NCBI GenBank assembly: GCA_003331635.1
Contig: QOPH01000002.1
Span: forward strand, 68,721 to 132,720
DNA: 64,000 nucleotides
Source of the DNA: SAR86 cluster bacterium
GTDB lineage: Bacteria; Pseudomonadota; Gammaproteobacteria; Magnimaribacterales; TMED112
Direction of reading: 5' to 3'
A program made the translations under genes and the position numbers. Under the pieces are notes generated by a model, which was given only the letters and a program-made list of their open reading frames with translations, had not been told where the DNA came from and did not search any database. Position 1 is the first letter of the stretch. The number at the start of each line of letters is the position of its first letter. Below, piece after piece: positions 7,153 to 22,665 of this stretch.

Positions 7153-8894
7153 AAGAATATTTAATACGTATTTACTCGTTACTTTATGAAGATAAAAAAA
7201 GACTGCCATTACTGCTTATACTGTTTTTACTTACTTCATTTTTTGATGCGTTAAGCCTAGCGATTTTATTTCCATTTATACAAATACTTGTGAATTTTCA
7301 GGATTTTCAATCTAGTTATGGATGGTTTTTTGAGAGCATAAACCTTACTTCGAAATCGGAAATTATTACATTCTTAGGCATTACACTTGTTTCACTATTC
7401 ATTATTAAAGCTTTTGCTTCAATCTTGGTTAACTGGGCCATTTTAAGAATAACCTACAATAGACAAGCAAAGATTAAGACATCTCTACTACATAAATACC
7501 TTAATATGCATTACAGAAAGTATATAGAAGGAAATAGTGCCAGATACATTCAGATGATTCAAACAATGAGTATGCAATTCATTAAAGTTTTACAAGGATT
7601 TTTAAGGCTTCTTTCAGATGGTCTTATTTTTCTTTCGATAGTAATTGTTTTAGCTATTGTTGAAGGCCCACTTTTAATTTATGTCGGCGGCATGATGTTA
7701 GTTCTTCTTTTAATATATGACATTTTTTTCAAAAAACTATTAGATAGCCAAAGTAGAGCTATTACTGACTCTAGTGTGCAAGTAACAAAAACAGTAAATG
7801 AATCAATCCAAGGTCTTAAAGAAATTAAGATTCTTGGAAAACAGAACTTTTTTGAAGATATTCTTAAGGAAAATGTAGACATTTATGCAAAAAATAATAT
7901 TTATGCTGATCTAATAAGAACACAGCCAAAACACATTATTGAGTTGATATTTGTAATTGCTTTTACTTTGGCAGTTGTGTTCTTTACTCCATTACAAAAC
8001 GATTTTCAGAGCTTAATACCCACACTTGGAGTATTTCTCTTTGCAGCAATTAGGTTAATGCCTACCCTTAATCAAATGCTTGCTTCTGTAAATGTTCTTA
8101 GAATAGGCTACTATCCCACAACCCTTCTTTTTGAGGACATGACTACAAAACAAGACCTTGAAGAAGATGATTATAAAGCAAATATCTTAAAAGATGGATT
8201 CACCTCCATGCTGTTGAAAAATGTATTTTTCTCATATAAAAATGACAAAGAGCATCAATTAAATGGTATTTCATTACAGGTTGATAAAAATAAATCGATA
8301 GGTCTTTTTGGTCAATCTGGATCAGGAAAAACAACTCTTGTCGACGTGATGTTAGGTCTACTAGAGCCAAGTAAAGGCGAGATTCATTTAAATAACAAAA
8401 TTGTAAAAAATAATAAAGAATTTAGAAATTTAGTGGCATATATTCCACAAGATATTTTCATAATTAACGACTCAGTAAAAAACAATATAACTTTAACTGG
8501 GAGGGATGAAGTTATTGATGATGTTTTATTAGAAGATGTAGTATTGAGATCAAGACTTAAAGAGGTTGTCAATAATCTCCCTGAGGGAATTAATACAAAT
8601 ATTGGAGAAAGAGGAGTAAAGCTTTCTGGAGGTCAAAAACAAAGAATTGCTATAGCTCGAGCACTCTATAACAAAAGAGAAGTTCTTATTATGGATGAGG
8701 CAACTAGTGCTTTGGATAATAATACGGAAAAAGAAATAATTGATGAAATAAGAAAGCTAAAAGGTAAAGTTACTATGGTAGTAATAGCCCATAGGCTTAC
8801 AACACTACAGCACTGTGATGAAATTTATGAAATTAGTAATGGAAGAATTAGCGAAAAATATAACTATGAAGACATAAGTAAAAGTAAAAAATAA
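7149..8894 (+). CDS. ABC transporter permease/ATPase fusion (PglK/MsbA-like glycan flippase)
   Basis: N-terminal TM helices; Walker A GQSGSGKT, LSGGQKQR signature, MDEATSALD and IAHR. Confidence 0.88.
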   Translation: MKEYLIRIYSLLYEDKKRLPLLLILFLLTSFFDALSLAILFPFIQILVNFQDFQSSYGWFFESINLTSKSEIITFLGITLVSLFIIKAFASILVNWAILRITYNRQAKIKTSLLHKYLNMHYRKYIEGNSARYIQMIQTMSMQFIKVLQGFLRLLSDGLIFLSIVIVLAIVEGPLLIYVGGMMLVLLLIYDIFFKKLLDSQSRAITDSSVQVTKTVNESIQGLKEIKILGKQNFFEDILKENVDIYAKNNIYADLIRTQPKHIIELIFVIAFTLAVVFFTPLQNDFQSLIPTLGVFLFAAIRLMPTLNQMLASVNVLRIGYYPTTLLFEDMTTKQDLEEDDYKANILKDGFTSMLLKNVFFSYKNDKEHQLNGISLQVDKNKSIGLFGQSGSGKTTLVDVMLGLLEPSKGEIHLNNKIVKNNKEFRNLVAYIPQDIFIINDSVKNNITLTGRDEVIDDVLLEDVVLRSRLKEVVNNLPEGINTNIGERGVKLSGGQKQRIAIARALYNKREVLIMDEATSALDNNTEKEIIDEIRKLKGKVTMVVIAHRLTTLQHCDEIYEISNGRISEKYNYEDISKSKK

Positions 8895-9763
8895 TGAGAG
8901 CCCTCTGTTACATTCAAAAAAAATACTATAAATGGAAGATTGATCTAATAGCAGATGATTTATTTAAAGGCGAAAAGAAAAATTGTGAAATTGAAATAGT
9001 TTATCCAGAAAATTTTTCATTAAATGCTCTTACCAAAAAGAAGAAATATGATTTTCTAGTTGGCTGCAATGTTGATGATTTTAAATTCCAGCTACTATAT
9101 AAATGTTTAAATTTCGACAAATTTATTACCTTTGATGAGGGGCAAAGAAGTATAAATGAAAATGATAAATATTATTCCAAGAGTTTTTCTTTTGAAAATC
9201 AAAAAAAGTTTTATTTTTTGAATAAAATTTGCGGCTTTCCATTACCATTTGGAAAGCTCTTAGAGAAAAGTGATAAACACTATTCGTTTTTTGATCCAAA
9301 AATTTTTAATCATCCTATTAAATCAACTACATTTCTTAAGAAGAAAAAAATTACGAAAAAGATTACAAAGATATTCTTTGGAGTAAGTAGCAATTGGGTT
9401 TTTAGTCATAGAGAAGATCTTTTGAATAAACCAAAAATCATAGAGAAGAAAATAAATGAAGCAGCTTTGAAAATAAATAAACTATGTCCTGATCTATATA
9501 TCCCCCACCCAAGAGAAGATGAGAGAATACTAGAATTACTTAATGAGAATATTACCATTGTAAATTGTCCAAATGGAAGTGAGGATTTTGTTAATAAATT
9601 AGCTTTAAGTAATGAAATTGAGGTATTTACAGAAAAATCAGGGGTAGTTTTTGATCTTAACAAAAAAATAAAAATTTCATTTATTGATTTATTTAATAGG
9701 TTTAGTAAATCCGAATACGACAAGTTTAAAAACCAATATAAAGAATTTAAGAAAAGCAATTAA
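8894..9763 (+). CDS. Putative CMP-sugar (sialyl/ulosonyl) transferase, GT52-like
   Basis: TFDEG (D/E-D/E-G motif) and YIPHPRE (HP motif), characteristic of bacterial sialyltransferases. Confidence 0.6.
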   Translation: MRALCYIQKKYYKWKIDLIADDLFKGEKKNCEIEIVYPENFSLNALTKKKKYDFLVGCNVDDFKFQLLYKCLNFDKFITFDEGQRSINENDKYYSKSFSFENQKKFYFLNKICGFPLPFGKLLEKSDKHYSFFDPKIFNHPIKSTTFLKKKKITKKITKIFFGVSSNWVFSHREDLLNKPKIIEKKINEAALKINKLCPDLYIPHPREDERILELLNENITIVNCPNGSEDFVNKLALSNEIEVFTEKSGVVFDLNKKIKISFIDLFNRFSKSEYDKFKNQYKEFKKSN

Positions 9764-9769
9764 ATCAAA

Positions 9770-10648
9770 ATGTTAGGTATAAATAGTAAAAAAAATATTC
9801 AATTTCCCCTACAAAAACAAGGCACACCAAGTGTAGTAGTTTTAGAGGACTTTTTTGATGAAGAATTTATTAGAGAAGCAAATAATGATTTTGAAGAGTT
9901 TATAAAAAAATCATCTGAGGTCGATTTTCTTAGTTTTGGAGAAACACGAAAAAATTTATCTTCAAGAGGGTCTAGGTATGAGGAAATTGTTAAATCGTCA
10001 AAATCTATCAGAAAAATTTGTGAATATATTAAGTCTGAGGAATTCTTTAAAAAATGTATTAAAAATTCGACTGAAGCATTCAATAAAAAAGGATTAAAAA
10101 TTAAAATTCCAAAATTCAATCAAAATTCCTATGACTCCTTAAGGTTTGCTAAAAAATTCTCTATCTTATGGGCGTTAAATAAGCTTCGTTTTGTTTTGTT
10201 TCAAATTCCCTATTTTGGAGACTTATTTGAGAAATTAAGTTTATCTTTGTTTGGAAACGTAGCTCCTACTATTGATGTTGCACAGTCTGAAATGGGTTAC
10301 GAAGTTGGAATGCATACTGATAGTAGATTTAAACTCATGGCTGGGATTATTTATTTAAATACAATAAAAGATGATAGTGATGGAGAAACAGAGTTTTGGA
10401 GCTCCGAAGGTCTTTCAAACCTTGAAAATCAAAAAAGATATCCAGATAAAGAGGATATAGTTAATTCCAAACTTTTGATGAGTGTTAAGCCTAAGGCCGG
10501 AAGAACTGTTTTATTCATAAACTCAAACGATTCTTATCATAGTGTTAAGAAATTTAAAGGAGATAAAAGGAACATCATATATTTTTCCTTTTCTGTACCT
10601 ATTTTAGATAATATCTGGGAAACAGACTTTAAAGTTAAATCTCTTTAA
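9770..10648 (+). CDS. 2-oxoglutarate/Fe(II)-dependent oxygenase
   Basis: HTD...IIYLN...G.TEFW...YHSV...KR, giving the HxD...H facial triad plus the 2OG-binding Arg. Confidence 0.8.
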   Translation: MLGINSKKNIQFPLQKQGTPSVVVLEDFFDEEFIREANNDFEEFIKKSSEVDFLSFGETRKNLSSRGSRYEEIVKSSKSIRKICEYIKSEEFFKKCIKNSTEAFNKKGLKIKIPKFNQNSYDSLRFAKKFSILWALNKLRFVLFQIPYFGDLFEKLSLSLFGNVAPTIDVAQSEMGYEVGMHTDSRFKLMAGIIYLNTIKDDSDGETEFWSSEGLSNLENQKRYPDKEDIVNSKLLMSVKPKAGRTVLFINSNDSYHSVKKFKGDKRNIIYFSFSVPILDNIWETDFKVKSL

Positions 10649-11471
10649 TTGCTTCAAGCATGTGTTGATGAACAATATCCTCTTTTCCTACCAGATTGTT
10701 TGCTAAACAAAAGCCTATGACTGCTTGCATAAGATTCATTCGTGAGCCGTCAATACAATTTAGAGAAAGAGAGCTTGCATCTCTTAATAGTTTTGAAGGA
10801 CTGTTTATATAATTAACATCGAATAACAGAGCTTCTTTGTTAATTGAACTTAATTGACTAGCTGAAAGAATAGAATCTTCGTTATTTCCATCTTTACCTA
10901 TAGAGGTGCAATTTATAAGAACATCGTAGTTTTCTATATCAAGATTAAGTGAACCATAATCTTTAAAATTCATCCCAAAATCTGTAAATAAACTAGAAAT
11001 TTCCTGATTTCTTCCATAAACATCTACATCAAAATTTTTATTTTGATTAGAAAGTTGATAGCACAATGATTTTGAAACTCCTCCAGTTCCAAGAATGCAT
11101 ACCCTTTGAATATCTAAATCTTTTTTTACGGAACTAATTGATTCGAGTAAAGCTAAGGTATCAGTATTAGCTGCTGTAAACTTGCCTTCAGAATTAAAGA
11201 AACAATTTTTTGGTTCAATAAAACTACCGCTATCATCTGCAAAATAATTTGCGACAACTTCTTTAAGTGGTGCTGCTACCGCTCCACCAATAAAATCAGT
11301 TTTTGTTATTTCTGAATCTAAGAATTCTATTGCATCACTTTCATGCTCTATATCTACAGCTGTCATTTCTGCATCAATATTGAGTGCATTAAAAGCAGCA
11401 TTCCATAAAATAGGAGAACGAGCACCCTTTGAAACATCTTTCCCTATTATTGCCGCCCTCTTCATCTTCAA
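10635..11471 (-). CDS. Shikimate dehydrogenase (AroE)-like oxidoreductase, divergent
   Basis: SPILWN, PLK, NTD, GTGGV, NCTSIG, DVNY and DG..M...Q motifs. Confidence 0.8.
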   Translation of the reverse strand: MKMKRAAIIGKDVSKGARSPILWNAAFNALNIDAEMTAVDIEHESDAIEFLDSEITKTDFIGGAVAAPLKEVVANYFADDSGSFIEPKNCFFNSEGKFTAANTDTLALLESISSVKKDLDIQRVCILGTGGVSKSLCYQLSNQNKNFDVDVYGRNQEISSLFTDFGMNFKDYGSLNLDIENYDVLINCTSIGKDGNNEDSILSASQLSSINKEALLFDVNYINSPSKLLRDASSLSLNCIDGSRMNLMQAVIGFCLANNLVGKEDIVHQHMLEAIKEI

Positions 11472-12343
11472 ATTACCTCTTTAGAAACTGCTTTTGCAAC
11501 GTTATCCATTTTTTTCATAAGAGAATTAAACGTATCGAAGTTGATTGGTTGCAAAGGATCGACTGCAGAATTTTCTGGATCTGGATGAACTTCTAACATT
11601 ATTGAATCAGCTCCAGATGCAATTGATGCAAGTGTCATTGGTTCAACCCAATCACGCCAGAAGGTTGCATGGGATGGGTCTGTAGCAACTGGAATATTTG
11701 TTATTTCTTGTGTTGCTGGAACAACTTGTAAATCCAATGAAAATCTAGAAGTTGCTCTATGAGTATGTGGAATTGACATTCCTCTCTCACATAAAATTAA
11801 TTTTGTACAGCCTTCCTTAAGAGCGTACTCAGCTGCTCCCAACCAATCTCTTAATGAGGCACCATAATGTCGTTTAAGCATTATAGGGAAACCTGTCTTT
11901 GCTGATTCTACTATTAGAGGATAATTTTGCATGTTTCTAGATCCAATCTGCAGGATATCCGTAGCATCGCATACTGCATCTAAATGTTTTTCTTCCATAA
12001 CTTCAGTTATGACAGGTATTTCAGCCTCCTCTCTGGCTGATTTTAACCACTTCAGACCATCTAAGCCTGTTTCTGTATATTTCTCATTTCTATAAGGAAA
12101 ACTTAAAGGTTTAAAAGCTCCACCTCTTAGAAAAGTAGCACCTGAAGCTTTTACTGACTTCGCAGTTTCTATAATGAGTTCTTCTGACTCAACCATGTTT
12201 GGACCTGCCATAACAGGAATTTTTTTACCATTAAAAACAACACCTGCTATTTCGAAAGGTTCTTTTGAAAAATTGGCTACTAAAGGTATTTTCGACTTTA
12301 TATCCTCTTCAGTTATATCTTTTCCGGGAAACTTGTTATACAT
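11468..12343 (-). CDS. Type I-beta DAHP synthase / KDO8P synthase family PEP-aldolase, divergent active site
   Basis: AGPN, LRGGAFKP, QIGSRNMQN, LCERG, DPSH and EVHPDP motifs; no regulatory domain. Confidence 0.85.
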   Translation of the reverse strand: MYNKFPGKDITEEDIKSKIPLVANFSKEPFEIAGVVFNGKKIPVMAGPNMVESEELIIETAKSVKASGATFLRGGAFKPLSFPYRNEKYTETGLDGLKWLKSAREEAEIPVITEVMEEKHLDAVCDATDILQIGSRNMQNYPLIVESAKTGFPIMLKRHYGASLRDWLGAAEYALKEGCTKLILCERGMSIPHTHRATSRFSLDLQVVPATQEITNIPVATDPSHATFWRDWVEPMTLASIASGADSIMLEVHPDPENSAVDPLQPINFDTFNSLMKKMDNVAKAVSKEVI

Positions 12344-13397
12344 CTTGCCCTAGTTTAGCCGATCTAACATCATCAGAAAAAGAAATTATTGAATTATTCT
12401 CCACAGATGAATATAAAGCATGAATATATTTTATTGAATCTAAACTGGATTCTGCACTTGTAGGAAAAATAATTTTTCCGGAATCATTAAAATTTTTACT
12501 AATTTCTTTAAGCATATGATGATGACCGTTACCATAACCATTTTTTACAGTTTCTGAGTTTTCTTTAAGTTCATTTGATAGCTCCACTCCATCAAGCTTA
12601 ACTCTTGTAAGCTCATTTAAAGCGATGCCTCCAACTGAAATTTGATATTTATCAGTTACCACTTCTAATGATGCTGAAAAATCTTCAGGTCTCACAGCGG
12701 TCGTCGCTTCAATTGTAAAAAATCCACCCTTTAAAAGTGTTCCAGACGCAACAAAAGTATCCTCAGCCTCAAGTTTATTATTGATATTTCCAGAGAAACC
12801 AGATAAAAATTGTGGAGGGCCAAATAAATAAAATAGAGCATCAATATGGTGTATTGCTTGTTGGCTAATTACTCCACCATCTGTTTTCCATCTCCCGTGC
12901 CATTCATCATTATAATAATCTTGAAACCTACACCACTGCAATTTAACACTTGCTGAAATGATTTTTCCAAAATCATTTTGTAAAAAGAGATTTTCAATAT
13001 ATTTAATTGGTTTATTCAATCTGTTTTGAAATACACCTCCGTAAAGAACATTTTTTTCTTTAGCAAGTGCCATATTTGCAACAACATCCTCTACGTTAAG
13101 ACCTATAGGTTTTTCACACAGAACATTAACTCCATTTTGTAAAAGTACCTTTGAGTTTTCTGCATGACTACCTGATGGAGTAGTAATTATGGCAATATCA
13201 ACATCATCTTTGCTTACCTCATCTATTGAAGCAAAGGTCTTACCTGAATTCTCTTTTTCCCATTTGCTCCTTGATTCTGCATACTGGTCCACACCTACAG
13301 AAAAAATATATTCATCAGATAAATTTTCTTTAATGACTTCAGCATAATGTTGAGCTGCTCGCCCTAAACCTATGAAAGCTAGTTTTAATTTACTCAA
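12336..13397 (-). CDS. Gfo/Idh/MocA NAD(P) oxidoreductase (WlbA/WbpB-like sugar dehydrogenase)
   Basis: IGLG, TPSGSH, CEKP, FQNR and W.R...YY...W.G.W..DGG....QAIHHID motifs. Confidence 0.82.
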   Translation of the reverse strand: MSKLKLAFIGLGRAAQHYAEVIKENLSDEYIFSVGVDQYAESRSKWEKENSGKTFASIDEVSKDDVDIAIITTPSGSHAENSKVLLQNGVNVLCEKPIGLNVEDVVANMALAKEKNVLYGGVFQNRLNKPIKYIENLFLQNDFGKIISASVKLQWCRFQDYYNDEWHGRWKTDGGVISQQAIHHIDALFYLFGPPQFLSGFSGNINNKLEAEDTFVASGTLLKGGFFTIEATTAVRPEDFSASLEVVTDKYQISVGGIALNELTRVKLDGVELSNELKENSETVKNGYGNGHHHMLKEISKNFNDSGKIIFPTSAESSLDSIKYIHALYSSVENNSIISFSDDVRSAKLGQDV

Positions 13398-14715
13398 ATT
13401 TCACCTCAAATTTACTCATTTCTTCTTCAGTGCTTATTTCAATCATATCAGCTTGATTAAGTTGGGGAATAAGATTTACCCTTTTTTTTAAAAAATTCCC
13501 ATTCCTTAAATCTGATGCATTAAGTGTGCACCCAAAACCAAATGGACAAATCATCACTGATGATTCCTCCAATTCTCTTGGCAATAGCTGATTATTTATT
13601 GCTATTTCGCTTTCCTCTCCTCTTGTAAAACATATTCTTTTTTCTTCATGGCTATAAAGTGTTGGTAGAAATGCTGATTCGTAAAAACTATCTACCAAAT
13701 TTTTAAAACTACTCTGATCTCTAAAAGGGTAGTTAACAGAAGAAAGAGTAATGGAATTAGGTATATATTTTTGATTTTCAAAATCTAAAAGACAATCCTT
13801 TAATACATCATTTAAGGAGGTGTCATAGTCTTTTGTGCCTCTATCAAAAATATCGAGTCCAGATTCTTCTGCTTGCTTCAAAGCCTTTTTATCGATTCCA
13901 CAAAATACTATGTCTTCAAAAACCGAACTTTTTTTTGCATCACTTATAACTTTTCGCAAAAGACCAAGACGAAAGTCGTCATATTTTTCTCTATCAAAAA
14001 TAATAAGTATGTCTTTTGTTTTTCCTTTATATTCACAAAGATTTTCACTCTTAAATTCGTCTGCTTCCATTATTTGAACAATTTTTTTAGCTCTTTTTTT
14101 ATCTGCTTCCTGATGTATGCCATGATGATGAAAAACTACTGCATCCGGCTCATATACAATCTTGAGTTTATTCTTTATGACTTCTTTTCCCCAAATTCTG
14201 TCCTCAATATTAGTCACTTCATCATCAAAACGAAATTTCTCCCAGGTTTTTCTTGTGAATGCTGAGTTGGCATTGTGAAAAAAAGAATCCTTTTCCTGAA
14301 CTCTCTTATCATTTCCAAATGTCAAAAATAAATCCCTTTTATCGAGATAATGTGATGAACTTGTGGGTACTTGCTTTCCATAAACACCCGCAATTTTTTC
14401 ATCTTCTAAATCATTTACTAAATTTTTAAGCCAATCTTTCTCTTTGGGAATGCAGTGCGCAGACAAACATATCAGATAATCTCCTGAAGAGTTTTCAATT
14501 CCATAATTAATTGCGTTTCCTGGTTTAAATTCTTTGAGGGTAACTACTTTTACATTCCATTCTTTTGCTTTTTCAACAGTCTTGTCTGTGGAACAGTTAT
14601 CTACAATAATTACCTCAAAATTTTTGTAATCCTGTTTGAAAATTGCATTTAAACAAATAGAAATCCATTTTTCTTCATTCTTCGTTCTAATTATTATGGA
14701 AGCTTTTTTCATCAT
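13390..14715 (-). CDS. GT2 glycosyltransferase fused to a degenerate NeuA-like cytidylyltransferase domain
   Basis: N-terminal SIIIRTKNEE, VDNCSTD, FHNANSA, IED; C-terminal AKKSSVFEDIV...NYPFRD...IEIST resembles the NeuA fold. Confidence 0.7.
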   Translation of the reverse strand: MMKKASIIIRTKNEEKWISICLNAIFKQDYKNFEVIIVDNCSTDKTVEKAKEWNVKVVTLKEFKPGNAINYGIENSSGDYLICLSAHCIPKEKDWLKNLVNDLEDEKIAGVYGKQVPTSSSHYLDKRDLFLTFGNDKRVQEKDSFFHNANSAFTRKTWEKFRFDDEVTNIEDRIWGKEVIKNKLKIVYEPDAVVFHHHGIHQEADKKRAKKIVQIMEADEFKSENLCEYKGKTKDILIIFDREKYDDFRLGLLRKVISDAKKSSVFEDIVFCGIDKKALKQAEESGLDIFDRGTKDYDTSLNDVLKDCLLDFENQKYIPNSITLSSVNYPFRDQSSFKNLVDSFYESAFLPTLYSHEEKRICFTRGEESEIAINNQLLPRELEESSVMICPFGFGCTLNASDLRNGNFLKKRVNLIPQLNQADMIEISTEEEMSKFEVKFE

Positions 14716-15446
14716 ATTTTCTCTGGTATCGGAGGTAAATTTTCAAAATCATTCTCTTTGATCCATTCGGCTGCCTTATTAGCTAAAAATAAATCAAAAT
14801 CGTTATGTATGTCTAATGCTGAAAAGCTTCTATTATCTGTTATCAGCTTAACATTGTCACCAATTCTACGCCCATTCCTCCAAAGGTTTGAACGAGATGC
14901 ACAAGCTAACCCAGTATCTTCCCTGTATGATTTTCTTCTAACTTGTCTACTCTCATAAATACTCATCCATTCTTTAAGACGTGTTGGATTATTATCAATA
15001 ACCTCCCAAAAGTTTTTGTGAGTTTCATTAGCGACGAATACACTCTCCAATTCATTATTTTCTTCAAGTGCATCTATAGCATGATCTATCCATCCATCTC
15101 TTCTGAATAAATCAGTACATGTTAAAAAAACGCATATATCGAAGCTTTGTTTAAATATTTTTTCTGACTCCAATAAAGAATACTTTAATGTCTCCTCAGT
15201 GGTTGTTAAATCACCTGAAACATCACTAGTACGCAAAAAGGGAACTTCTGCACCATATTTTAATGCAACCTCTCTTATGTCTTTATCGTCTGTAGAAACA
15301 ACTATTTTCGAAAGTTTTTTAGATCTTTTAGCTGCCTCGATTGGCCATGCAATTAAAGGATGACCCAAGAATTCTCTTAAATTCTTTTTCTCAAGCCCCT
15401 TAGAGCCTCCCCTTGCAGGGATTATTGCTATACTATTACTCTGCAT
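14712..15446 (-). CDS. Acylneuraminate (CMP-ulosonate) cytidylyltransferase, NeuA-like
   Basis: IIPARGGSKGLEKKN, VSTDD, EVPFLR and LDIH..FD motifs. Confidence 0.88.
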   Translation of the reverse strand: MQSNSIAIIPARGGSKGLEKKNLREFLGHPLIAWPIEAAKRSKKLSKIVVSTDDKDIREVALKYGAEVPFLRTSDVSGDLTTTEETLKYSLLESEKIFKQSFDICVFLTCTDLFRRDGWIDHAIDALEENNELESVFVANETHKNFWEVIDNNPTRLKEWMSIYESRQVRRKSYREDTGLACASRSNLWRNGRRIGDNVKLITDNRSFSALDIHNDFDLFLANKAAEWIKENDFENLPPIPEKI

Positions 15447-15462: not shown

Positions 15463-16629
15463 ATGATAAGTATAGTAATTCCATCTAGAAATGATGACAT
15501 TGAAGTTTTTCAAAAAACTATTAACGCAATAAAAAAACAAACTGTATTGCCAAAAGAAATTATTATTGTTGATTCAAGTACTGATAATTCAATAAAAAAC
15601 TTTTTACAAAAGCAAAAATTAAAGCTGATTAATCTTATTTACAAAAAAATTGATGGGTCATTTGCAGGAAAAAGTACAAATATTGGAATGTCTCTTGCAA
15701 CACAAAAGTTTATTGGTTTGCTTGATACCAAAACAATTCCAAATGATACATGGATAGAAAAATACATAAAACAATTGGAAAGAGATAACTCAGATTTGAT
15801 TTTTGGAAATACAAAATTCTTCTCTAAAAATAGATTTCAAAAAATACTAAGAATTCTTTCATATGGTGATGCATCACATGAAACAGTACCTGGAACTATA
15901 TTTAAACGCAGTAAATTCGGCAAAAAAATGTTTTTCATTGAAAATGTCAGATCATCATATGATATTGAGTGGAGGGAGAGACAAAAAACTCTTTTGAAAA
16001 CTTCTTTGGGTAATGAGATTGAAATAGAGTATGGAGAATTTCCAAATTCATTCTTGGATGCTGCAAAAAAATACTTTATTTATAGTTTTTATACTGCAAT
16101 TGTAAATGTTCAAAAGGATGCGAAAGATCTATATTTATCAATTTTTATAATTTTATCCGCATTAGTCATACCAAGATGGAATTTTTTTCTTGAAGGCTGG
16201 GATGAGAATCCGCTCTATATTGCAGATGTAACAAAAAAATACTTTTTATCACTATTGGTAATTTTTTTGAGTTTTTTAATTGCAACAAGATTTTTTCCTA
16301 AGCAAGTAGAAAATAGGCTTCCATTTATTACTCTTAAATACACAGTTTTTCTTTTTATCTTTCTTTCTGTTTTTAATTGGAATGCAGTAGTAGCTGACTG
16401 GGTAGAGGATGCTGTTTTTTACATTCCACATATCACGAAAATTTTTGTGGTTTTAGTTTTGATTTCCTCTGTATTGGTTAGGGGACTTTTTAAACCAGTA
16501 AGCAACAAAGTTAAATTAAATTATCTTCTTCCCTTTAGGTGGTTATTTATTGGCACTATTGGGCTAATACTCGATATTGTTAAAGCTCCTGGTTACATAA
16601 TAGGTTCCTTGATTTCAAAATTTAGATAA
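15463..16629 (+). CDS. GT2 glycosyltransferase with C-terminal transmembrane helices
   Basis: SIVIPSRND, IIIVDSSTD, LLD; hydrophobic C-terminal half. Confidence 0.75.
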   Translation: MISIVIPSRNDDIEVFQKTINAIKKQTVLPKEIIIVDSSTDNSIKNFLQKQKLKLINLIYKKIDGSFAGKSTNIGMSLATQKFIGLLDTKTIPNDTWIEKYIKQLERDNSDLIFGNTKFFSKNRFQKILRILSYGDASHETVPGTIFKRSKFGKKMFFIENVRSSYDIEWRERQKTLLKTSLGNEIEIEYGEFPNSFLDAAKKYFIYSFYTAIVNVQKDAKDLYLSIFIILSALVIPRWNFFLEGWDENPLYIADVTKKYFLSLLVIFLSFLIATRFFPKQVENRLPFITLKYTVFLFIFLSVFNWNAVVADWVEDAVFYIPHITKIFVVLVLISSVLVRGLFKPVSNKVKLNYLLPFRWLFIGTIGLILDIVKAPGYIIGSLISKFR

Positions 16630-17344
16630 AACTTTTTATATCAAGAAATTCTGATTCAATGTTGTAAGATTTTGAAATTCTTTTTGGCATTTTTAATGCT
16701 TTAATTTTCAAGCTCTTTGAAAATGAATTCATAAATCTTAAGAAATTAAGTGGGCTCCCATTTAAGTCATTTTTATACTCTTGTAATTGTTGGATTATGG
16801 AATCTTTCACAATAAAAATACTCTGATCTGCTAGCCCCTCGTCCCAATTTATTTCTGCTCTATTATCAATTGAGAGATGAATATCATTAACAAACTCAGA
16901 ATTTTCTTTGAGCACATATTTTACATATGGATTTTTATCAAATATTAAGGGTACAAAAATATCAGCATCCTCAGAAATATTTAAATGCTTTTCAAATGCA
17001 GATATTGAATCAATAATAAAAGTATCGCCCCAACACACAAATATTAGACTACCATTTGCTTTAAAGCTACTTAACCCATCTAAAACAGCTTGTCCATCTC
17101 CTGAACCTGACTCACTTTCAATGAATTTAATCTTTGATAAAAAATGATCCTCAATATTTTTGTTGAACAATTCTTTTGAAGATTTATCTTTAGGTATTGG
17201 TATTATTATTGTTTCAAAATACTTATTAACTTCCTCTAAAAGGTAATTTATCGCTGCTCTACCATTAATTTTTAGTAGTTGCTTTGGTACTGATGATTTC
17301 ATTCTTGTTGATTTTCCAGCACATGGAATAATAATTTTTCTCAA
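16622..17344 (-). CDS. Nucleotidyltransferase (GlmU-N/IspD-like NTP transferase)
   Basis: IIIPCAGKSTRMKS..PKQL, GSGDG and WGD motifs; TTG at 17344 gives a TTGA overlap with the upstream stop (ORF track start is 17359). Confidence 0.75.
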   Translation of the reverse strand: MRKIIIPCAGKSTRMKSSVPKQLLKINGRAAINYLLEEVNKYFETIIIPIPKDKSSKELFNKNIEDHFLSKIKFIESESGSGDGQAVLDGLSSFKANGSLIFVCWGDTFIIDSISAFEKHLNISEDADIFVPLIFDKNPYVKYVLKENSEFVNDIHLSIDNRAEINWDEGLADQSIFIVKDSIIQQLQEYKNDLNGSPLNFLRFMNSFSKSLKIKALKMPKRISKSYNIESEFLDIKSFI

Positions 17345-19533
17345 GAATCTGATCTCCATTTCGAGCTATTTGCTCCCATTATTAATGATGAAATTTTTAA
17401 ATTATCATGTTTGCCTGAATCAATAGATTCAAAATCTTCAGCGAGTATTTCTTTAAGATCTAATTGATATAATTCACTCATATTCAACCTTATGTACCTA
17501 GAATCTTGTTTTGATGGAGAATTTGAGATAATTACATCAAAAAGTTCAGGTACCTGAAAATTAAGTTTTCCCTTTTGATTTAAATAAAACCTTGCCTGTT
17601 TAATTTGATCTGCTGCTGTAAATTCTGGTGTTTCATTGTCATGATCGATATTTGTTATAAAAAACTTTTGTGCTGAAGATTTTGAAATCTCTTCAGTTAA
17701 TCCTTTTGTCCAATAAGTTGGATATAAACTGCTGTATTGAGTTCCAGGACCATATATTATTATGTCAGCTTTTCGAACTGCTGAAGCAGTATCTTGGCTT
17801 AGGTCAGGGAATGGTGATGATATATTTTCGAGAAATTGTTTTTTCTTAATAAGCCCTGTTAAAGATTCAAATTGTTTCTCCTCTTCTTCTGATAATGGAT
17901 ATGTTTTATAAAAAATTTCAAAAATTGGTGTTTTTCCCTCATAACCTACAATTTCTGACTCGTCTTTCAGAAGCTTTCCATCCTCTGTAAGGCCAAAAAG
18001 ATAACCAGCTTCTGATGAATTAAAGAAAACCTCATTTGGCAAATTGAAAGCATCTCTCACCATAAGTTCAACTTTCTTTATATCCCCATATTTATGCTCT
18101 AGAGAACCATAAATAATATTAGATAAGGCAAAATCTTGAAATTCTAATGTTTTATTCTGCTTTTCAGAAATTTTTTTAAAATGTGAGAGCGAATCACTAA
18201 TTATCTCTTGCATCTGATAATTCATTTTTTGGTAATAAGGGAAAAATTTTGATTTATAATTTTGATTATCAATAAGCTTAGAAATATCATTTTTAAAATC
18301 AAGAAAGTCACATGACGTACGGCTTTTAAAAAAATCGAGCCCCTCTCCTTCAGGATAATAAAATTCATATTGAGTCTCTTGGACTTTTCTTAAATCAGAG
18401 GGTCCTAAAATTTTGTAATCAAAAAAAGCTCTTATTGCGCCAGTTGAGAGGCCATCGTCATAAGCATTAATAATATTTGTTAAATCTAAATTAACGTCAT
18501 TTAGTTTTGAAAACTCTCTAAGTCCATCACATAGGTTTATCGAACCCCTTCCTCCTGAAAATACAACTACATTCAAACCATTTTGATTAATATCATAAAA
18601 TCCTTTTTTTCCTTGAATGCCATGAAGATATCCTTTGAAAAAATAACGAAGATTTATAAAAAAATTGTGATAGTTAGAATGAAAGAATAAAAAAAATAAG
18701 CCTGCAGTAAACTTTAAATTATGAGCAAGCAAATATAAAAACCACCCAACCGAGAATGATTTGAAGTTCTTTTTAAGAAATAATAATGATCCCCTTGTAG
18801 AGTAATATAACCATTGTTTATTTGCATATTTATTTTTGCTACCTGTTTTAGTATCGTGATAACCAATAGCTTTCGGAGTAAAGCGATGAATATTTTTTGC
18901 CTTTATAGATCTGTACATCAGATCGTGATCGTCGTAATAGAGAAAGTAATCTTTATCAAACCAACCAATTTCTTTTTCTATTTTTCTGGAAATTAACACC
19001 ATACATCCATTTAGGGCATCAAGCGTTCTAACTTCAGAGAATTTTTCGTGATTAGTCTCATTAACACCAATACCCTTTGCTATTGCATAGTAAGGTTTTA
19101 AGTCGGCACCAATAGCATGTAATGTATTCTTATTTTGAAAATAAAATACTTTTCCACCTACAAAAGTATGTTTTTCTGATTTTTCTGCTTCATTAACTAA
19201 CTCAGCAACACAATCTTTATCAAGTACTACATCTTCATCCATTTTTAGCATGTATTTCCAATCCTCATGAATAACCTTTAAGGCTTCAATATATGAACCT
19301 GATGAACCAGAATTTAATTTTAAATCTAGAAGTTTTATTTTTTTGTTATCTATTTCCCTAGAAAATATTTTTTTAATTTCAGATACTGTTCCATCATTAG
19401 AGTTATTGTCTACAACAATTACCTCAAATGAATCCTCTGGATAATTTTGCGAAAGAATAGATTGAATACTTTCATTGATTATGTACTTTCTGTTATAACT
19501 TGCTACAACGATGCTAACGAAAGGTTTTTTCAT
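17341..19533 (-). CDS. Fusion of GT2 glycosyltransferase and CofD/YvcK (UPF0052)-like domain
   Basis: GT2: SIVVASYNR, VDNNSND, DED, FLYYDDHD; C-half: VVFSGGRGS, YDDGLSTG, PSDLRK and ADIIIYGPGTQYSSLYP. Confidence 0.8.
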   Translation of the reverse strand: MKKPFVSIVVASYNRKYIINESIQSILSQNYPEDSFEVIVVDNNSNDGTVSEIKKIFSREIDNKKIKLLDLKLNSGSSGSYIEALKVIHEDWKYMLKMDEDVVLDKDCVAELVNEAEKSEKHTFVGGKVFYFQNKNTLHAIGADLKPYYAIAKGIGVNETNHEKFSEVRTLDALNGCMVLISRKIEKEIGWFDKDYFLYYDDHDLMYRSIKAKNIHRFTPKAIGYHDTKTGSKNKYANKQWLYYSTRGSLLFLKKNFKSFSVGWFLYLLAHNLKFTAGLFFLFFHSNYHNFFINLRYFFKGYLHGIQGKKGFYDINQNGLNVVVFSGGRGSINLCDGLREFSKLNDVNLDLTNIINAYDDGLSTGAIRAFFDYKILGPSDLRKVQETQYEFYYPEGEGLDFFKSRTSCDFLDFKNDISKLIDNQNYKSKFFPYYQKMNYQMQEIISDSLSHFKKISEKQNKTLEFQDFALSNIIYGSLEHKYGDIKKVELMVRDAFNLPNEVFFNSSEAGYLFGLTEDGKLLKDESEIVGYEGKTPIFEIFYKTYPLSEEEEKQFESLTGLIKKKQFLENISSPFPDLSQDTASAVRKADIIIYGPGTQYSSLYPTYWTKGLTEEISKSSAQKFFITNIDHDNETPEFTAADQIKQARFYLNQKGKLNFQVPELFDVIISNSPSKQDSRYIRLNMSELYQLDLKEILAEDFESIDSGKHDNLKISSLIMGANSSKWRSDS

Positions 19534-20726
19534 TTTGAAAGCTCCTCATAAATTGAAGTATATAACTTTAATCCTGACTTTAATGAAAATTCTTTTTTGC
19601 CAATTTCAATACACTTTAAATTCAATTTCTCTTTATTATTATTTGGATTTACAAATTCGAAAACTTTATCTATGTCATCCTTAGCAAAATTTGTAATAAT
19701 TCCACAGCCTTGATTAGTTAAGTATTCAATATCATTGTTAAACGCATTGCATATAATTGGGACTCCGCACATAAGAACCTCGCCTATTTTTGTAGGCATA
19801 GAGGCTTTAACTGAAAAGTTTTCATTCAAATAAAATATACATGCATTAAAGTTATTAATTTGATTAACTAGCTCTTTCTTATCTCTTATAAATTTAATTG
19901 AAAGCCTTTCAAGATCTTTGAATCCAACCTCTCTAGCTACACTCATTATCTTAGATTCAGGGGTTGAAGAATATATGTCTAGGTAAGCATTTTTATGTTT
20001 TCGAGAAAACAAATTGAAAAAATTTAAAACTTTTTGAAAATTGTATGCTGTATCGAGAGTTCCCAAATAACCGAATCTTATAGTTTGATCCTCATCTTTT
20101 TTTATTTTTTTAAATACATTTTCATCAGCACATGTTCTGATTGTTGTGATGACTTTTTGACTTACCTTATGTTCTTTTACTAAAAATTCTCGTGAATGAT
20201 CTGTTAAGGTTATTATTTTATCTGCACTTTTCAAAAGTTTTTTTTCAATGGCTTTAAAGAAAATATACTTATATCCCGATCTGTTCCATCCAGCTCTATC
20301 AGCTTTTTCGTCAGCCCAAAAGCCTCTCATATCGAAAATTAATTTGAATTTAAAGATTTTTTTTAAAATTAATAATGGAATACCCAATAAGTAGCCTCTT
20401 AAATGAATAATGCCAATTCTATTAAAAGATAGAATCAGAATTAGATTACTTAACAAAATAAATAAGTCATAAAGAGTTGCTAATGTAGTTGGACTTTTAT
20501 GGTAAATACTTTTTATCCATTTAATTCCTGAATTTTTTATTATTTTTGAAACCGCTGATACTCTTTTAGTGTCTTTAAGATCATATGGTTTTTCAAATGA
20601 ATAAAGAATAAAGTTATAACTTTTTGCAAGTCCTAAAACATAATTGAGAACTTGTGATGACCCTAAAGGCTCTAAAACACCGTCATAGGATAAATAAAGT
20701 ATTTTTTTATTTGTATCTTTCAACAT
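19530..20726 (-). CDS. GT4 glycosyltransferase
   Basis: YLSYDGVLEPLGSSQV, FDMRGFW and SMPTKIGE..CGVPII motifs. Confidence 0.85.
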   Translation of the reverse strand: MLKDTNKKILYLSYDGVLEPLGSSQVLNYVLGLAKSYNFILYSFEKPYDLKDTKRVSAVSKIIKNSGIKWIKSIYHKSPTTLATLYDLFILLSNLILILSFNRIGIIHLRGYLLGIPLLILKKIFKFKLIFDMRGFWADEKADRAGWNRSGYKYIFFKAIEKKLLKSADKIITLTDHSREFLVKEHKVSQKVITTIRTCADENVFKKIKKDEDQTIRFGYLGTLDTAYNFQKVLNFFNLFSRKHKNAYLDIYSSTPESKIMSVAREVGFKDLERLSIKFIRDKKELVNQINNFNACIFYLNENFSVKASMPTKIGEVLMCGVPIICNAFNNDIEYLTNQGCGIITNFAKDDIDKVFEFVNPNNNKEKLNLKCIEIGKKEFSLKSGLKLYTSIYEELSK

Positions 20727-22665
20727 ACCAAGAATTGAATTGAATTAAACTCCACAACTTGTGTTCATGATTTTTCTTACCATCTAAATGCTCACTTAGA
20801 AATTTTTCTACAACCTGTTGATTAAAAAAACCATGGGTATCATTTATATCTTTTGACAACATTTCTTTAGTCCATTTATTTAAATCTGTTTGCATCCATT
20901 TTGAGATTGGCACTCCAAATCCTTGTTTAGGCCTCTCTATTAATTCTCTTGGAAGATAATTAGAAATTAGGTCTTTTAAAATAATTTTAGAATTACTACC
21001 TTTTATTTTGAATTTTTCTGGAATTGAATACGCATATTCAATTACATCTTTATCTAAAAAAGGTACTCTTGTTTCTAAACTGTGAAACATTGCTGCTCTA
21101 TCAACTTTACATAAAATATCGTCAACCATATATGTTTTAAAATCGGTGTACATCATTTTCTCAATGAAACCTTTAGTGCTAAATTCATTGAAAATGTCTT
21201 CATAATGACAGTCAGGTTGATTATTAACTAAAATTTCATCATCACTTTTCCATTCTCTTATCATTGAACTGTAATAGTTATATTGAGAATCAATATGTTT
21301 TATTTTTTCAAATGCTTTATCAGCCCTTTGTGAAAGATTACCTGAGAAAAAGCCTTTTAGAATGGTTGAGAAAACAATTTCAAAAAGTTGTTTGCCGCCA
21401 CTACTTAGTATACCTAATAAAACTTTTCTAATTGCATAAGGAAGCAAGTAAAAGATTTTTAAATACCTACTAGCAATTATATATCTGTTGTAACCACCAA
21501 AAAGTTCATCTCCACAATCTCCTGTAAGTACAACTTTTACATCCTGACTAGCAATTTTTGAAATCATCATTGTTGGAATTTGTGAGCTATCAGCAAAAGG
21601 CTCAGTATAGGCTTTACTTAATGATTTGATTATTTCTTGCGTCTCTTTTGTAGAGCAAATTACTGTTTTGTGATCAGTTTTAAGATATTTAGCAATCTTT
21701 TCAGCATGAATAGACTCGTCATATTCACTAAATTCGAAACCTATAGTAAATGTTTTTGTGTCTTTATTAGCTTTTGACATTAGTGATGCAACTAGGGTTG
21801 AATCTATTCCTCCGGATAGAAAACATCCTAATGGCACATCAGACAATTGTTGTAGTTTTATCGCATTAGAGAGCTTTTGATTTAAGGTTTGTTTAACATC
21901 TGAGTATTTAATGCCTACATCTAACGTTTTTGCTTCATGTAAAGTCCAAAACTCTTTTAAAGAAACTGAATCTTGTTCACAAAAATCCCTAAAAGTATCA
22001 AAATTCTTTAATTTTAATTGGTCCAGTTTTATGCTGATTGAAGTTGCAGAAGGTACTTTAAAAATATTTTTAAATATTGTTTTAGGTGCAGGTACATACC
22101 CAAAATTTAAATATTCCATTAATGCTTTTTCACAAATAATTTTTTGAAATGAACCAATATCCTCAAAAGTACTAAGATCTGAAGAGGCAGCGAATACTCC
22201 TTCAAAACAGCAAATATAAAGCGGCTTTTCACCAGCTCTATCTCTAGCTAAATGAATTTCATTATTCAATTTGTCGTAAATTGAAAAACTAAACATTCCG
22301 TTAAGATTTTTAAGGGTTTCATCTAACCCAAATTTATCAATCATGCAGATAAGGGTTTCAGTATCAGAGGTAGTTTTAAAACTAAAATCTTTTAAAAAAT
22401 TTTTCCTGAGATCCAGATGATTATAAATCTCGCCATTATAAGTTAATGCGTATCTTTCTGAATGAAATGGTTGATTAGATCTCTCATTTAAATCTAAGAT
22501 TGAAAGTCTTCTATGTCCTAAAGCAACAAATGCATCTTCAATAGGGAAAATACTAACTCCAGAAGCATCTGGACCTCTATGTTTTATTTTTTGCATTGAA
22601 AGATTTACTTCTTGCTCAGATTGAGGAAATCTTCTATCTGAATAAGAGAAATAAATTCCACACAT
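20707..22665 (-). CDS. asnB: Asparagine synthase (glutamine-hydrolysing)-family amidotransferase, probably sugar amidation
   Basis: N-terminal MCGI, HRGPD, HRRLSILD, NGEIYN, LSGGIDS, GDCGDELFGGY and KVDRAAM..SLETRVPFLD. Confidence 0.9.
   Translation of the reverse strand: MCGIYFSYSDRRFPQSEQEVNLSMQKIKHRGPDASGVSIFPIEDAFVALGHRRLSILDLNERSNQPFHSERYALTYNGEIYNHLDLRKNFLKDFSFKTTSDTETLICMIDKFGLDETLKNLNGMFSFSIYDKLNNEIHLARDRAGEKPLYICCFEGVFAASSDLSTFEDIGSFQKIICEKALMEYLNFGYVPAPKTIFKNIFKVPSATSISIKLDQLKLKNFDTFRDFCEQDSVSLKEFWTLHEAKTLDVGIKYSDVKQTLNQKLSNAIKLQQLSDVPLGCFLSGGIDSTLVASLMSKANKDTKTFTIGFEFSEYDESIHAEKIAKYLKTDHKTVICSTKETQEIIKSLSKAYTEPFADSSQIPTMMISKIASQDVKVVLTGDCGDELFGGYNRYIIASRYLKIFYLLPYAIRKVLLGILSSGGKQLFEIVFSTILKGFFSGNLSQRADKAFEKIKHIDSQYNYYSSMIREWKSDDEILVNNQPDCHYEDIFNEFSTKGFIEKMMYTDFKTYMVDDILCKVDRAAMFHSLETRVPFLDKDVIEYAYSIPEKFKIKGSNSKIILKDLISNYLPRELIERPKQGFGVPISKWMQTDLNKWTKEMLSKDINDTHGFFNQQVVEKFLSEHLDGKKNHEHKLWSLIQFNSWYVERYK

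Follow-up and report, generated by a model that had tools for sequence, protein, structure and literature searches.

A CofD/YvcK-fold domain and a GlmU-like nucleotidyltransferase form a conserved, often fused unit in bacterial polysaccharide loci

Introduction

What does a CofD-like domain do at the end of a glycosyltransferase? This question is raised by a stretch of 64,000 nucleotides from a SAR86 cluster bacterium (contig QOPH01000002.1, positions 68,721 to 132,720), which we call the window. One open reading frame (ORF) in the window encodes a family 2 glycosyltransferase (GT2) joined to a domain of the CofD/YvcK superfamily, and it overlaps the gene for a stand-alone nucleotidyltransferase (NTP transferase), P0002. 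The original prediction, made from the sequence alone, was that the two proteins apply the logic of CofC and CofD, from F420 synthesis, to a glycan. We found that a CofD-like domain and a GlmU-like NTP transferase form a conserved and often fused unit in polysaccharide loci, usually together with a HAD enzyme and a GT2. The reaction that we tentatively favor for this unit is the transfer of a sugar-1-phosphate from a nucleoside diphosphate sugar (NDP-sugar) to a hydroxyl of a glycan.

The gene pair and its cassette

In the window, the cassette comprises these genes and domains:

16622..17359 (-): P0002, a nucleotidyltransferase like the N-terminal domain of GlmU, 245 aa; PF12804 and PF01128; alternative TTG start at 17344
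17341-19533 (-): GT2::CofD fusion gene, an ORF of 730 aa
17344..18579 (-): CofD/YvcK-fold domain of the fusion, residues 319-730; PF01933
18664..19533 (-): GT2 domain of the fusion, about residues 1-290; PF00535 and PF13641
19530..20726 (-): GT4 glycosyltransferase of the cassette type, 398 aa; weak Pfam matches to GT4
20707..22665 (-): AsnB-type glutamine amidotransferase, a cassette member, 652 aa; Pfam Asn_synthase (E 3.8e-99) plus GATase_6/7

Pfam confirmed the predicted architecture, a GT2 of 730 aa with a C-terminal UPF0052/CofD domain. Glycos_transf_2 (PF00535) covers residues 7-140 (E 5.8e-22), PF13641 covers residues 6-229, a GT2_3 match reaches about residue 285, and CofD (PF01933) lies in the C-terminal half in two stretches (E 1.8e-24). 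Our hidden Markov model (HMM) of the CofD-like domain spans residues 319-729. An aromatic-rich hydrophobic linker (about residues 255-315) lies behind the GT2 domain. The four motifs that the prediction quoted are all present (SGGRGS at 326-331, DDGLSTG at 359-365, PSDLRK at 378-383, and GPGTQYSS at 596-603). In the GT2 domain, an acidic DxD-type motif (D99-E100-D101) and D42 are invariant in 15 members of the window's clade.

The predicted TTGA overlap with the NTP transferase gene exists if P0002 begins at an in-frame TTG; its ATG start lies 19 nt inside the GT2-CofD gene. (Both starts appear in public gene calls, as cluster members of 245 aa and 240 aa.) The sequence at this junction is ATGGAGATCAGATTCTTGA. 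On the other side, the GT4 gene and the fusion gene overlap by 4 nt. The GT2::CofD architecture is no chance ORF, as the full-length fusion recurs in other genomes and in marine metagenomes (contigs at 43-75% identity).

With HMMs that include no sequences from the window, the window's AsnB scores 558 bits against the cassette AsnB proteins and its GT4 scores 254 bits against the cassette GT4s. The window's GT2 scores just 43 bits against the canonical cassette GT2, which is GlfT1-like, so it is of a different subtype. In split relatives (L003, L110-L123), this subtype ("GT2p") is a separate gene of about 320 aa just upstream of CofD.

The CofD-like gene is linked to the nucleotidyltransferase across genomes

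Using an alignment of the CofD-like domain (A1), we scanned a set of genomes in which each species is represented once. This confirmed 121 stretches, and the counts that follow are for the best 80 loci. To the ORFs called at these loci we applied an HMM built from P0002 and the NTP transferase domains of fused proteins. A P0002-type NTP transferase (at least 95 bits) is beside the CofD-like gene in 72 of the 80 loci, in every case on the strand of that gene and usually 1.4-2.6 kb downstream. Generic NTP transferases at these loci score at most 53 bits. Five of the eight loci that lack it are contigs that end less than 2 kb downstream.

Other families recur as well: HAD in 70 loci, GT2 in 60, the cassette GT4 in 52 (directly upstream of CofD), and AsnB in 41 (within 8 kb of CofD on either side). 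As judged by Pfam and NCBIfam matches of the neighbors, the recurring order is an AsnB-type amidotransferase, a GT4 of about 400 aa, the CofD-like gene, HAD_2, GT2, and the NTP transferase; the order GT4-CofD-HAD-GT2-NTP is found in 47 of the 80 loci. The cassette HAD_2 is nearest to the beta-phosphoglucomutase family and the cassette GT2 is nearest to GlfT1, both below the cutoff. This larger cassette, with GT4, AsnB, and mostly HAD, had not been recognized in the original prediction.

About a dozen phyla are represented among the 80 loci. Among the carriers are sphingomonads, Caulobacterales, Burkholderiales, Methylococcales, Prochlorococcus, Synechococcus, and Chitinophagales, as well as Geomonas, Bacteriovoracaceae, Myxococcota, Gemmatimonadota, Terriglobia, Calditrichaceae, Magnetococcales, and Clostridia. 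At E ≤ 1e-3, the matches number about 1,600 representatives at 50% identity, more distant members of the superfamily included. A search of plasmids gave only an unrelated CofD-family gene in Acaryochloris and one GAK-type gene, and a protein atlas returned only generic "gluconeogenesis factor/CofD" clusters.

The CofD-like domain is often fused to its partners

We also searched for homologs of the CofD part of the fusion. (This search was confined to lengths of 401-1278 aa, and the sample is biased accordingly.) A near-complete CofD domain is present in 254 of the 271 stored proteins; the other 17 were dropped, as they had no domain or an envelope of under 300 aa. We classified the 254 proteins with our own domain HMMs and spot-checked 22 of them with Pfam:

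Stand-alone CofD: 118 of 254
CofD::GT2: 74 of 254
GT2::CofD: 21 of 254
CofD with an unassigned extension: 16 of 254 (of 5 spot-checked, 1 had a weak Hydrolase_3 match and 4 had CofD only)
CofD::Cof-type HAD: 8 of 254
NTP::CofD::GT2: 7 of 254
CofD::...::NTP, including CofD::HAD::NTP: 6 of 254
HAD_2::NTP::CofD::GT2: 2 of 254
NTP::CofD: 1 of 254
Unknown::CofD::NTP: 1 of 254

Stand-alone forms of about 405 aa are also among the homologs. P0002 aligns to the fused NTP transferase domains at 23-28% identity (E 1e-9 to 2e-15). Because the domains occur in opposite orders and the GT2s are of different subtypes, the fusions must have arisen more than once.

The pair also stays together in the window's own clade

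A scan of metagenomes with an alignment of GT2::CofD (A3) gave 31 loci. We set aside two weak matches to GT2 only, which left 29. The gene order in this clade is AsnB, GT4, GT2, CofD, NTP transferase. GT2 and CofD are fused in about half of the loci and separate in the rest, and some of the separate CofD genes bear a C-terminal Cof-type HAD. The NTP transferase follows CofD in all 22 loci with downstream DNA (in the other 7, the sequence stops within or ahead of CofD). Of the 29 loci, 24 have GT4, directly upstream of CofD, and 22 have AsnB.

Among 24 other genomes of the genus, 4 have the full fusion at 96-98% identity (L084-L087, in G017, G005, G013, and G020), which with the window's own makes five species-level genomes, and one more related genome has a split form that is 32% identical; GT2::CofD was not found in 19 of the 24 genomes searched. 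We then considered the window's own genome together with 40 related genomes. The NTP transferase profile scores at least 137 bits in exactly the 6 of these 41 genomes that have a CofD-like gene, where the match adjoins that gene, and in none of the other 35. The best matches elsewhere are housekeeping GlmU proteins of about 455 aa, at 118 bits or less. Taken together, the genome loci (72 of 80), the metagenome loci (22 of 22), the related genomes (6 of 6 versus 0 of 35), and the fusions uphold the prediction that the CofD-like protein and the NTP transferase are a linked functional pair.

Within the genus, the distribution of GT2::CofD is patchy yet near-identical in sequence. Because of this combination, it fits the exchange of a surface-glycan island.

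The CofD-like domain differs from both CofD and housekeeping YvcK

We examined the fold and the family placement of the CofD-like domain. An AlphaFold 2 (AF2) model of residues 310-730 (pLDDT 88.6) was compared with known structures by Foldseek. Its best matches are UPF0052/YvcK structures (2hzb, 2o2z, 2ppv, and 2q7x; E 1e-15 to 1e-19, target TM-score [TMt] 0.73-0.81). CofD and FbiA (3c3d and 6uw1) match at about 1e-8 to 1e-9, with a TMt of about 0.6. In NCBIfam, the fusion protein falls far short of both the YvcK family (TIGR01826; 70.9 bits, cutoff 196) and the GAK-system CofD-like family (TIGR04357; 47 bits, cutoff 340), and it has no match to a CofD equivalog at E ≤ 0.01. The stand-alone cassette members score 96 bits against TIGR01826, and their best NCBIfam match is TIGR04357 at 110 bits, which are also below the cutoffs. 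With the N-terminal 72 aa of the domain as a query, phmmer aligns M. (Methanosarcina) mazei CofD at E 0.72.

Nor is the domain a housekeeping YvcK. Besides the low score, the fusion gene is the only PF01933 gene in the window's genome, and the yvcJ/rapZ and whiA families are not among the Pfam matches of the ORFs called across the window. Because of these three results, we exclude a housekeeping YvcK role. The domain is thus neither CofD nor a housekeeping YvcK.

The invariant motifs of the CofD-like proteins are GGRG, NAYDDGxSTG, GPSDxRK, GTQxSSLYP, NIxxDxEtP, and GxH. Within the window's clade, D359, D360, D380 (in GPSD), and N628 are invariant, and the Asp-Asp motif is therefore kept. In alignments, this motif (DD in DDGLSTG) falls on DDGGSSG of the YvcK structures; in M. 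mazei CofD it falls on NTAED, where D360 corresponds to the D. The N of ITNID aligns with CNVMTQ of 2hzb. (The phmmer alignment to 2hzb leaves the C-terminal region of the domain unaligned.) D359, D360, and N628 correspond to D40, D41, and N198 of Listeria GlmR, which are described as the predicted catalytic residues for its uridylyltransferase activity, the conversion of UTP and GlcNAc-1-phosphate to UDP-GlcNAc (PMC10128056). In FbiA, Asp45 and Asp57 are described as holding the catalytic metal, and the hydroxyl of Fo attacks the beta-phosphate directly (PMC7253369). B. (Bacillus) subtilis GlmR is reported to bind UDP-GlcNAc via Y265 and R301 (PMC7525490). The residues of the CofD-like domain are compatible with catalysis, but the superfamily as a whole shares them. 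A predicted complex of the CofD-like domain and the NTP transferase weighs neither way (scores of 0.00, 0.38, and 0.00 against a mark of 0.32).

The nucleotidyltransferase resembles GlmU, not CofC

We then examined the partner. In Pfam, P0002 matches the MobA-like NTP_transf_3 (PF12804, E 1e-9) and IspD (PF01128). In a profile search against the PDB, the family's profile (A2) aligns with GlmU from S. (Streptococcus) pneumoniae at E 1.2e-33, from positions 6-245 to residues 4-238. The alignment takes in the sugar-binding half, and the signatures of GlmU are all aligned (the nucleotide loop G-x-G-[ST]-R, PK, Q...G-x-G-x-A, G-D, and the terminal N). In the list of the best 60 PDB profile matches, the next families are IspD (4e-14) and IPCT (2.5e-12), which align over the N-terminal half only. 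A fold search with the AF2 model of P0002 (pLDDT 89.5) gave the N-terminal domains of GlmU first, and then LicC, RmlA, HddC, KdsB, and IPCT. CofC/FbiD (PF01983) is absent from the Pfam matches at E ≤ 0.01, from the best 60 PDB profile matches listed, and from the fold matches listed to rank 50.

P0002, at 245 aa, has no hexapeptide domain in Pfam. It scores 42.8 bits against the GlmU equivalog (TIGR01173, cutoff 366.85), and its family is under all of the GlmU cutoffs in NCBIfam. The window's genome also has a separate GlmU of about 455 aa. Because the family is GlmU-like from end to end and CofC/FbiD is not among the listed matches, the sequences suggest that the activated group is more likely to be a sugar-1-phosphate than a phospho-acid (2-phospholactate, phosphoenolpyruvate, or 3-phosphoglycerate).

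The cassette lies among genes for polysaccharide synthesis

The flanks of 14 loci contain EpsG/Wzy-like polymerases, Wzx flippases, Wzz/Wzc, Wza, and extra GT4 and GT2 genes, along with acyltransferases, methyltransferases, and sugar-nucleotide enzymes. The glycan setting that had been predicted is therefore real. In the window, the glycan island runs from about base 1 to about 27.9 kb, with housekeeping genes beyond. It includes Wzz, three further GT4 or GT2 genes, a UDP-sugar dehydrogenase-like gene, an ABC exporter, a GT52, and two cytidylyltransferases. The contig also has a WecA/MraY-family gene 21 kb upstream of the window (one of two PF00953 genes in the genome), so a conventional initiating enzyme is available.

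We also considered whether the cassette might encode a new initiating phosphoglycosyl transferase. PF02397 is absent from the window's genome. We dropped this idea nonetheless, because with two PF00953 genes present, a novel initiating enzyme is not needed.

RNA contigs from four marine libraries, in four studies, cover parts of 16622-20726 at 95% identity or above and leave other parts uncovered. The junction of GT2-CofD and the NTP transferase is bridged by contigs from RNA libraries in three runs, and the junction of GT4 and GT2-CofD by one. This is weak evidence for expression, because DNA may have been carried over and a contig does not prove a single transcript.

A proposed mechanism

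From the domain identities, folds, conserved residues, linkage, fusions, and polysaccharide context, we infer a donor, an acceptor, and a reaction. Our preferred explanation, which we advance tentatively, is that 16622-22665 is the window's version of a widespread polysaccharide cassette in which the NTP transferase makes an NDP-sugar and the CofD-like domain transfers sugar-1-phosphate from it to a hydroxyl of the repeat unit, with release of a nucleoside monophosphate (NMP). The core would be the GlmU-like nucleotidyltransferase and a CofD/YvcK-fold phosphotransferase, acting with the GT2 and the GT4. The nucleotidyltransferase would join a nucleoside triphosphate (probably UTP in the canonical family) and a sugar-1-phosphate to form the NDP-sugar. 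In most lineages, a HAD enzyme (beta-phosphoglucomutase-like or Cof-type) would supply or process the sugar-phosphate. A hydroxyl of the lipid-linked repeat unit, as built by the fused GT2 and the adjacent GT4, would attack the sugar-proximal phosphate of the NDP-sugar. CofD-type chemistry would release NMP and leave the sugar-1-phosphate bound via a phosphodiester. The AsnB homolog would convert a carboxyl, probably that of a uronic acid in the repeat unit, to an amide, and Wzx/Wzy-type genes would export and polymerize the unit. The original idea of CofC/CofD logic on a glycan was correct as to the linked pair, the polysaccharide setting, and the Asp-Asp motif. The CofC-like activation of a phospho-acid was not supported, as the profile of the NTP transferase matches the GlmU domain end to end (1e-33) and its fold is nearest to GlmU, LicC, and RmlA.

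A broader proposal is possible but more doubtful: the cassette CofD/YvcK proteins might be a new family of soluble sugar-1-phosphate transferases that write phosphodiester-linked sugars into exopolysaccharides or O-antigens using an NDP-sugar channeled from a dedicated GlmU-like enzyme. If this is true, the family would be unrelated to Stealth, LicD, TagF, and the polyprenyl-phosphate phosphoglycosyl transferases.

Several points weigh against sugar-1-phosphate transfer. Our literature searches turned up no biochemistry on this clade. The closest solved relatives, YvcK and GlmR, are described as UDP-GlcNAc-binding regulators or accessory uridylyltransferases and not as phosphosugar transferases (PMC7525490, PMC10128056). 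Every branch of the superfamily has the conserved residues, which therefore cannot tell one reaction from another. P0002 is from a divergent subclade and has E where the canonical family has the GlmU-like, uracil-reading Q, so its nucleotide and its sugar are uncertain. Three loci (L072, L077, and L080) have full flanks yet no NTP transferase, and our HMM score thresholds were set after viewing the bimodal distributions of the scores. Finally, simple transfer of sugar-1-phosphate does not explain the role of the HAD, and the window's cassette has no HAD. Across the whole genome (91% complete), the best score for a cassette-type HAD is 95.8 bits (for a HAD_2::NTP fusion at 4739-6109 that looks unrelated), versus at least 126 bits for cassette members, and no Cof-type HAD of the fused kind was found. 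In the window, the cassette either does without the HAD step or has it supplied in trans.

Alternative explanations

The conserved residues of the CofD-like domain would also suit a GlmR/YvcK-like sensor or hand-over module for NDP-sugars, which would tune the GT2 or AsnB, or an accessory nucleotidyltransferase. We think this is unlikely, but YvcK-type proteins are the nearest in both sequence and fold. GlmS, like AsnB, has an N-terminal glutamine amidotransferase domain. B. subtilis GlmR is described as binding UDP-GlcNAc and stimulating GlmS (PMC7525490), and Listeria GlmR as making UDP-GlcNAc (PMC10128056), and the D-D-N triad is invariant in the window's clade. However, the cassette already has a dedicated GlmU-like transferase, and AsnB (41 of 80 loci) is more loosely linked than the NTP transferase (72) or the HAD (70). 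The domain is also far below the YvcK cutoff (70.9 versus 196 bits) and lacks YvcK synteny, and repeated fusions of two enzymes in varying orders are more typical of consecutive catalytic steps. Another alternative is a private route to an unusual NDP-sugar for the GT2 or GT4, with no phosphodiester in the polymer. In one form of it, the CofD-like protein, HAD, and NTP transferase would convert a sugar-6-phosphate to a free sugar or a sugar-1-phosphate and then to an NDP-sugar; the CofD-like protein would be an anomeric phosphotransferase or would act in some other way on the nucleotide-sugar. (The salvage pathway of MupP, AmgK, and MurU has the same logic of phosphatase, kinase, and uridylyltransferase.) The trio is fused in all orders, and the HAD subfamilies that replace each other have known phosphomutase members (beta-phosphoglucomutase-like); Cof-type HADs are related to eukaryotic phosphomannomutase. 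The window's island also has a HAD_2::NTP_transferase fusion without CofD. Still, kinase-like activity is not known for the CofD/YvcK fold, and in the window's clade the HAD is dispensable while the CofD-like protein and the NTP transferase are never separated, so we consider the private route improbable.

Two other alternatives keep the transfer of a phosphate group and change what is activated. The NTP transferase might make a CDP-alcohol or another NDP-alcohol (of the choline, glycerol, ribitol, or inositol type), with the CofD-like domain as a new phospho-alcohol transferase and the HAD removing the leftover phosphate. LicD, TagF, and di-myo-inositol-phosphate phosphate (DIPP) synthase are models for this, and the HAD would act as it does in di-myo-inositol-phosphate synthesis. 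LicC (CTP:phosphocholine cytidylyltransferase) is the fifth fold match to P0002 and, of the top-ranked matches, the one with the highest target coverage (TMt 0.76). There are matches of the family to IPCT and IspD as well, P0002 on its own matches mainly the N-terminal, nucleotide-binding half of GlmU and IspD, and HAD phosphatases of two different subfamilies are attached. We nevertheless doubt this explanation strongly, because the family matches the whole GlmU domain at 1e-33, while the matches to IspD (4e-14) and IPCT (2.5e-12) are to the N-terminal half only. The same GlmU alignment, which extends over the sugar-1-phosphate uridylyltransferase domain from end to end, makes the phospho-acid of the original prediction very unlikely. 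There, CofC-like activation would be followed by installation on a sugar by the CofD-like domain, and with AsnB the product might be a decoration of the phospho-glyceramide type. CofD-type chemistry with a nucleotidyltransferase partner does parallel F420 synthesis, an amidotransferase does belong to the cassette, and there are glyceramide 2-phosphate substituents in bacterial glycans (the term is found in the synthetic-chemistry literature). But CofC/FbiD is not among the Pfam, PDB profile, or fold matches listed above, and the CofD-like domain is nearer to YvcK than to CofD/FbiA.

Other genes in the island and at related loci

The HAD_2::NTP fusion mentioned above (4739-6109, minus strand, 456 aa) joins a beta-phosphoglucomutase-like HAD_2 to a PF00483 NTP transferase and is in the same glycan island as the cassette. 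It could provide the missing HAD step in trans, or it could be an independent mutase and nucleotidyltransferase for another sugar.

At 10635-15446 (-), the island encodes a shikimate-dehydrogenase-like protein, a protein like DAHP or KDO8P synthases (291 aa, below the equivalog cutoffs), a GFO/IDH/MocA oxidoreductase, a GT2, and a PseF-like cytidylyltransferase. This looks like a pathway to an unusual CMP-activated 3-deoxy-ulosonic acid. (A separate housekeeping DAHP synthase is at 56093-57145.) The genes at 7149-10648 encode an ABC exporter of 581 aa to which a membrane domain is fused, a sialyltransferase-like GT52, and a 2-oxoglutarate-Fe(II) oxygenase. They suggest that there is a second glycan, which would be ABC-dependent and capped by an ulosonic acid. 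An ORF of the UDP-glucose/GDP-mannose dehydrogenase family at 27029-27898 (-; 289 aa) has the N-terminal and central domains and no C-terminal UDP-binding domain, so it may be truncated or a variant. A gene for a glucose/sorbosone dehydrogenase (GSDH; 27953-29725, plus strand) borders the island. GSDH is also near the cassette in Prochlorococcus (L047, 2335-3738, plus strand), which may be a coincidence.

Loci of the CofD::GT2 type that lack GT4 or AsnB have differing neighbors (L065, 2598-6578 and 14065-16107; L079, 1020-6570). One such locus, from Calditrichaceae, has three membrane proteins of the LtaS/sulfatase family, and another, from a gammaproteobacterium, has the phosphate-uptake operon pstSCAB-phoU. 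These neighbors hint at a link to phosphate-containing modifications of the envelope. In Magnetococcales (L075, 10024-14637), a 681-aa protein without a Pfam match, a radical SAM protein, and a methyltransferase lie between CofD::GT2 and HAD-NTP. Methyltransferases are also within the cassette in L008, L009, L040, and L061.

Novelty and significance

The cassette-type CofD-like proteins are a new functional branch of a known superfamily. Our literature searches, which combined CofD or UPF0052 with terms for glycosyltransferases, nucleotidyltransferases, and polysaccharides, found no paper on this architecture, cassette, or clade among those listed; for UPF0052 with glycosyltransferases, they found only the paper on UDP-sugars and YvcK. 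(The psc1 cluster of Rubrivivax has no CofD gene in the accessible part of its description.) So far, the superfamily has had one well-understood reaction, in F420 synthesis, and one much-debated branch, YvcK/GlmR. What defines the third branch is that it is obligately linked, and repeatedly fused, to an enzyme that forms sugar nucleotides and to glycosyltransferases; this points to transferase chemistry on nucleotide sugars.

If sugar-1-phosphate transfer is correct, these proteins would be a new family of enzymes that make phosphodiester links in the surface glycans of bacteria, and theirs would be the first clear transferase chemistry for the long-enigmatic YvcK branch. Abundant marine bacteria have variable surface-glycan islands that shape recognition by phages and grazers, and a conserved block of genes in these islands would be explained; the carriers include Prochlorococcus and the streamlined genus of the window. 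The cassette would also be a marker by which phosphorylated polysaccharides could be predicted from a genome. If the chemistry turns out otherwise, the cassette is still a well-delimited target.

Comparison with known systems

Stealth, LicD, and TagF-type enzymes use NDP-activated donors, release NMP, and build the phosphodiester links of capsules and teichoic acids. We propose the same reaction for the CofD-like domain, although the folds and families are unrelated, and none of these enzymes was detected in the cassette. For the partner, the closest known system is the N-terminal domain of GlmU, which the NTP transferase family matches in signatures and in fold over the whole domain. P0002 differs from GlmU in lacking the left-handed helix domain of the acetyltransferase, and its subclade has changed the uracil-reading Q.

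Within the superfamily, the GAK-system CofD-like proteins (TIGR04357) are, similarly, an uncharacterized side branch, and they are the best NCBIfam match of the stand-alone cassette members. Their gene neighborhood is different, and the window's protein scores 47 bits where 340 is required. YvcK/GlmR/CuvA (UPF0052) shares more with the cassette domain, namely the motifs DDGxSxG, PxDxR, GPGxxxxS, and N-x-x-x-Q/D-x-ET, and YvcK is reported to bind UDP-sugars (PMC7525490). Unlike YvcK/GlmR, the cassette domain has an extra helical insert, is not in synteny with yvcJ/rapZ and whiA, and is linked to a private NTP transferase (72 of 80 loci) and usually to a HAD and a GT2. It lies inside loci for exopolysaccharides or O-antigens, as in Prochlorococcus and sphingomonads.

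The cassette domain resembles CofD and FbiA in belonging to PF01933, in its fold, in an N-terminal GGxG loop, and in an acidic motif that aligns with NTAED of M. mazei CofD. A nucleotidyltransferase partner is encoded next to the cassette's CofD-like gene, and the reaction that we propose, in which a hydroxyl attacks the beta-phosphate and NMP is released, would be as described for FbiA (PMC7253369). In contrast, the partner in the cassette is GlmU-like instead of CofC/FbiD, the cassette domain has an insertion of about 100 aa and a fusion to GT2, and the cassette belongs to polysaccharide synthesis rather than to a cofactor pathway.

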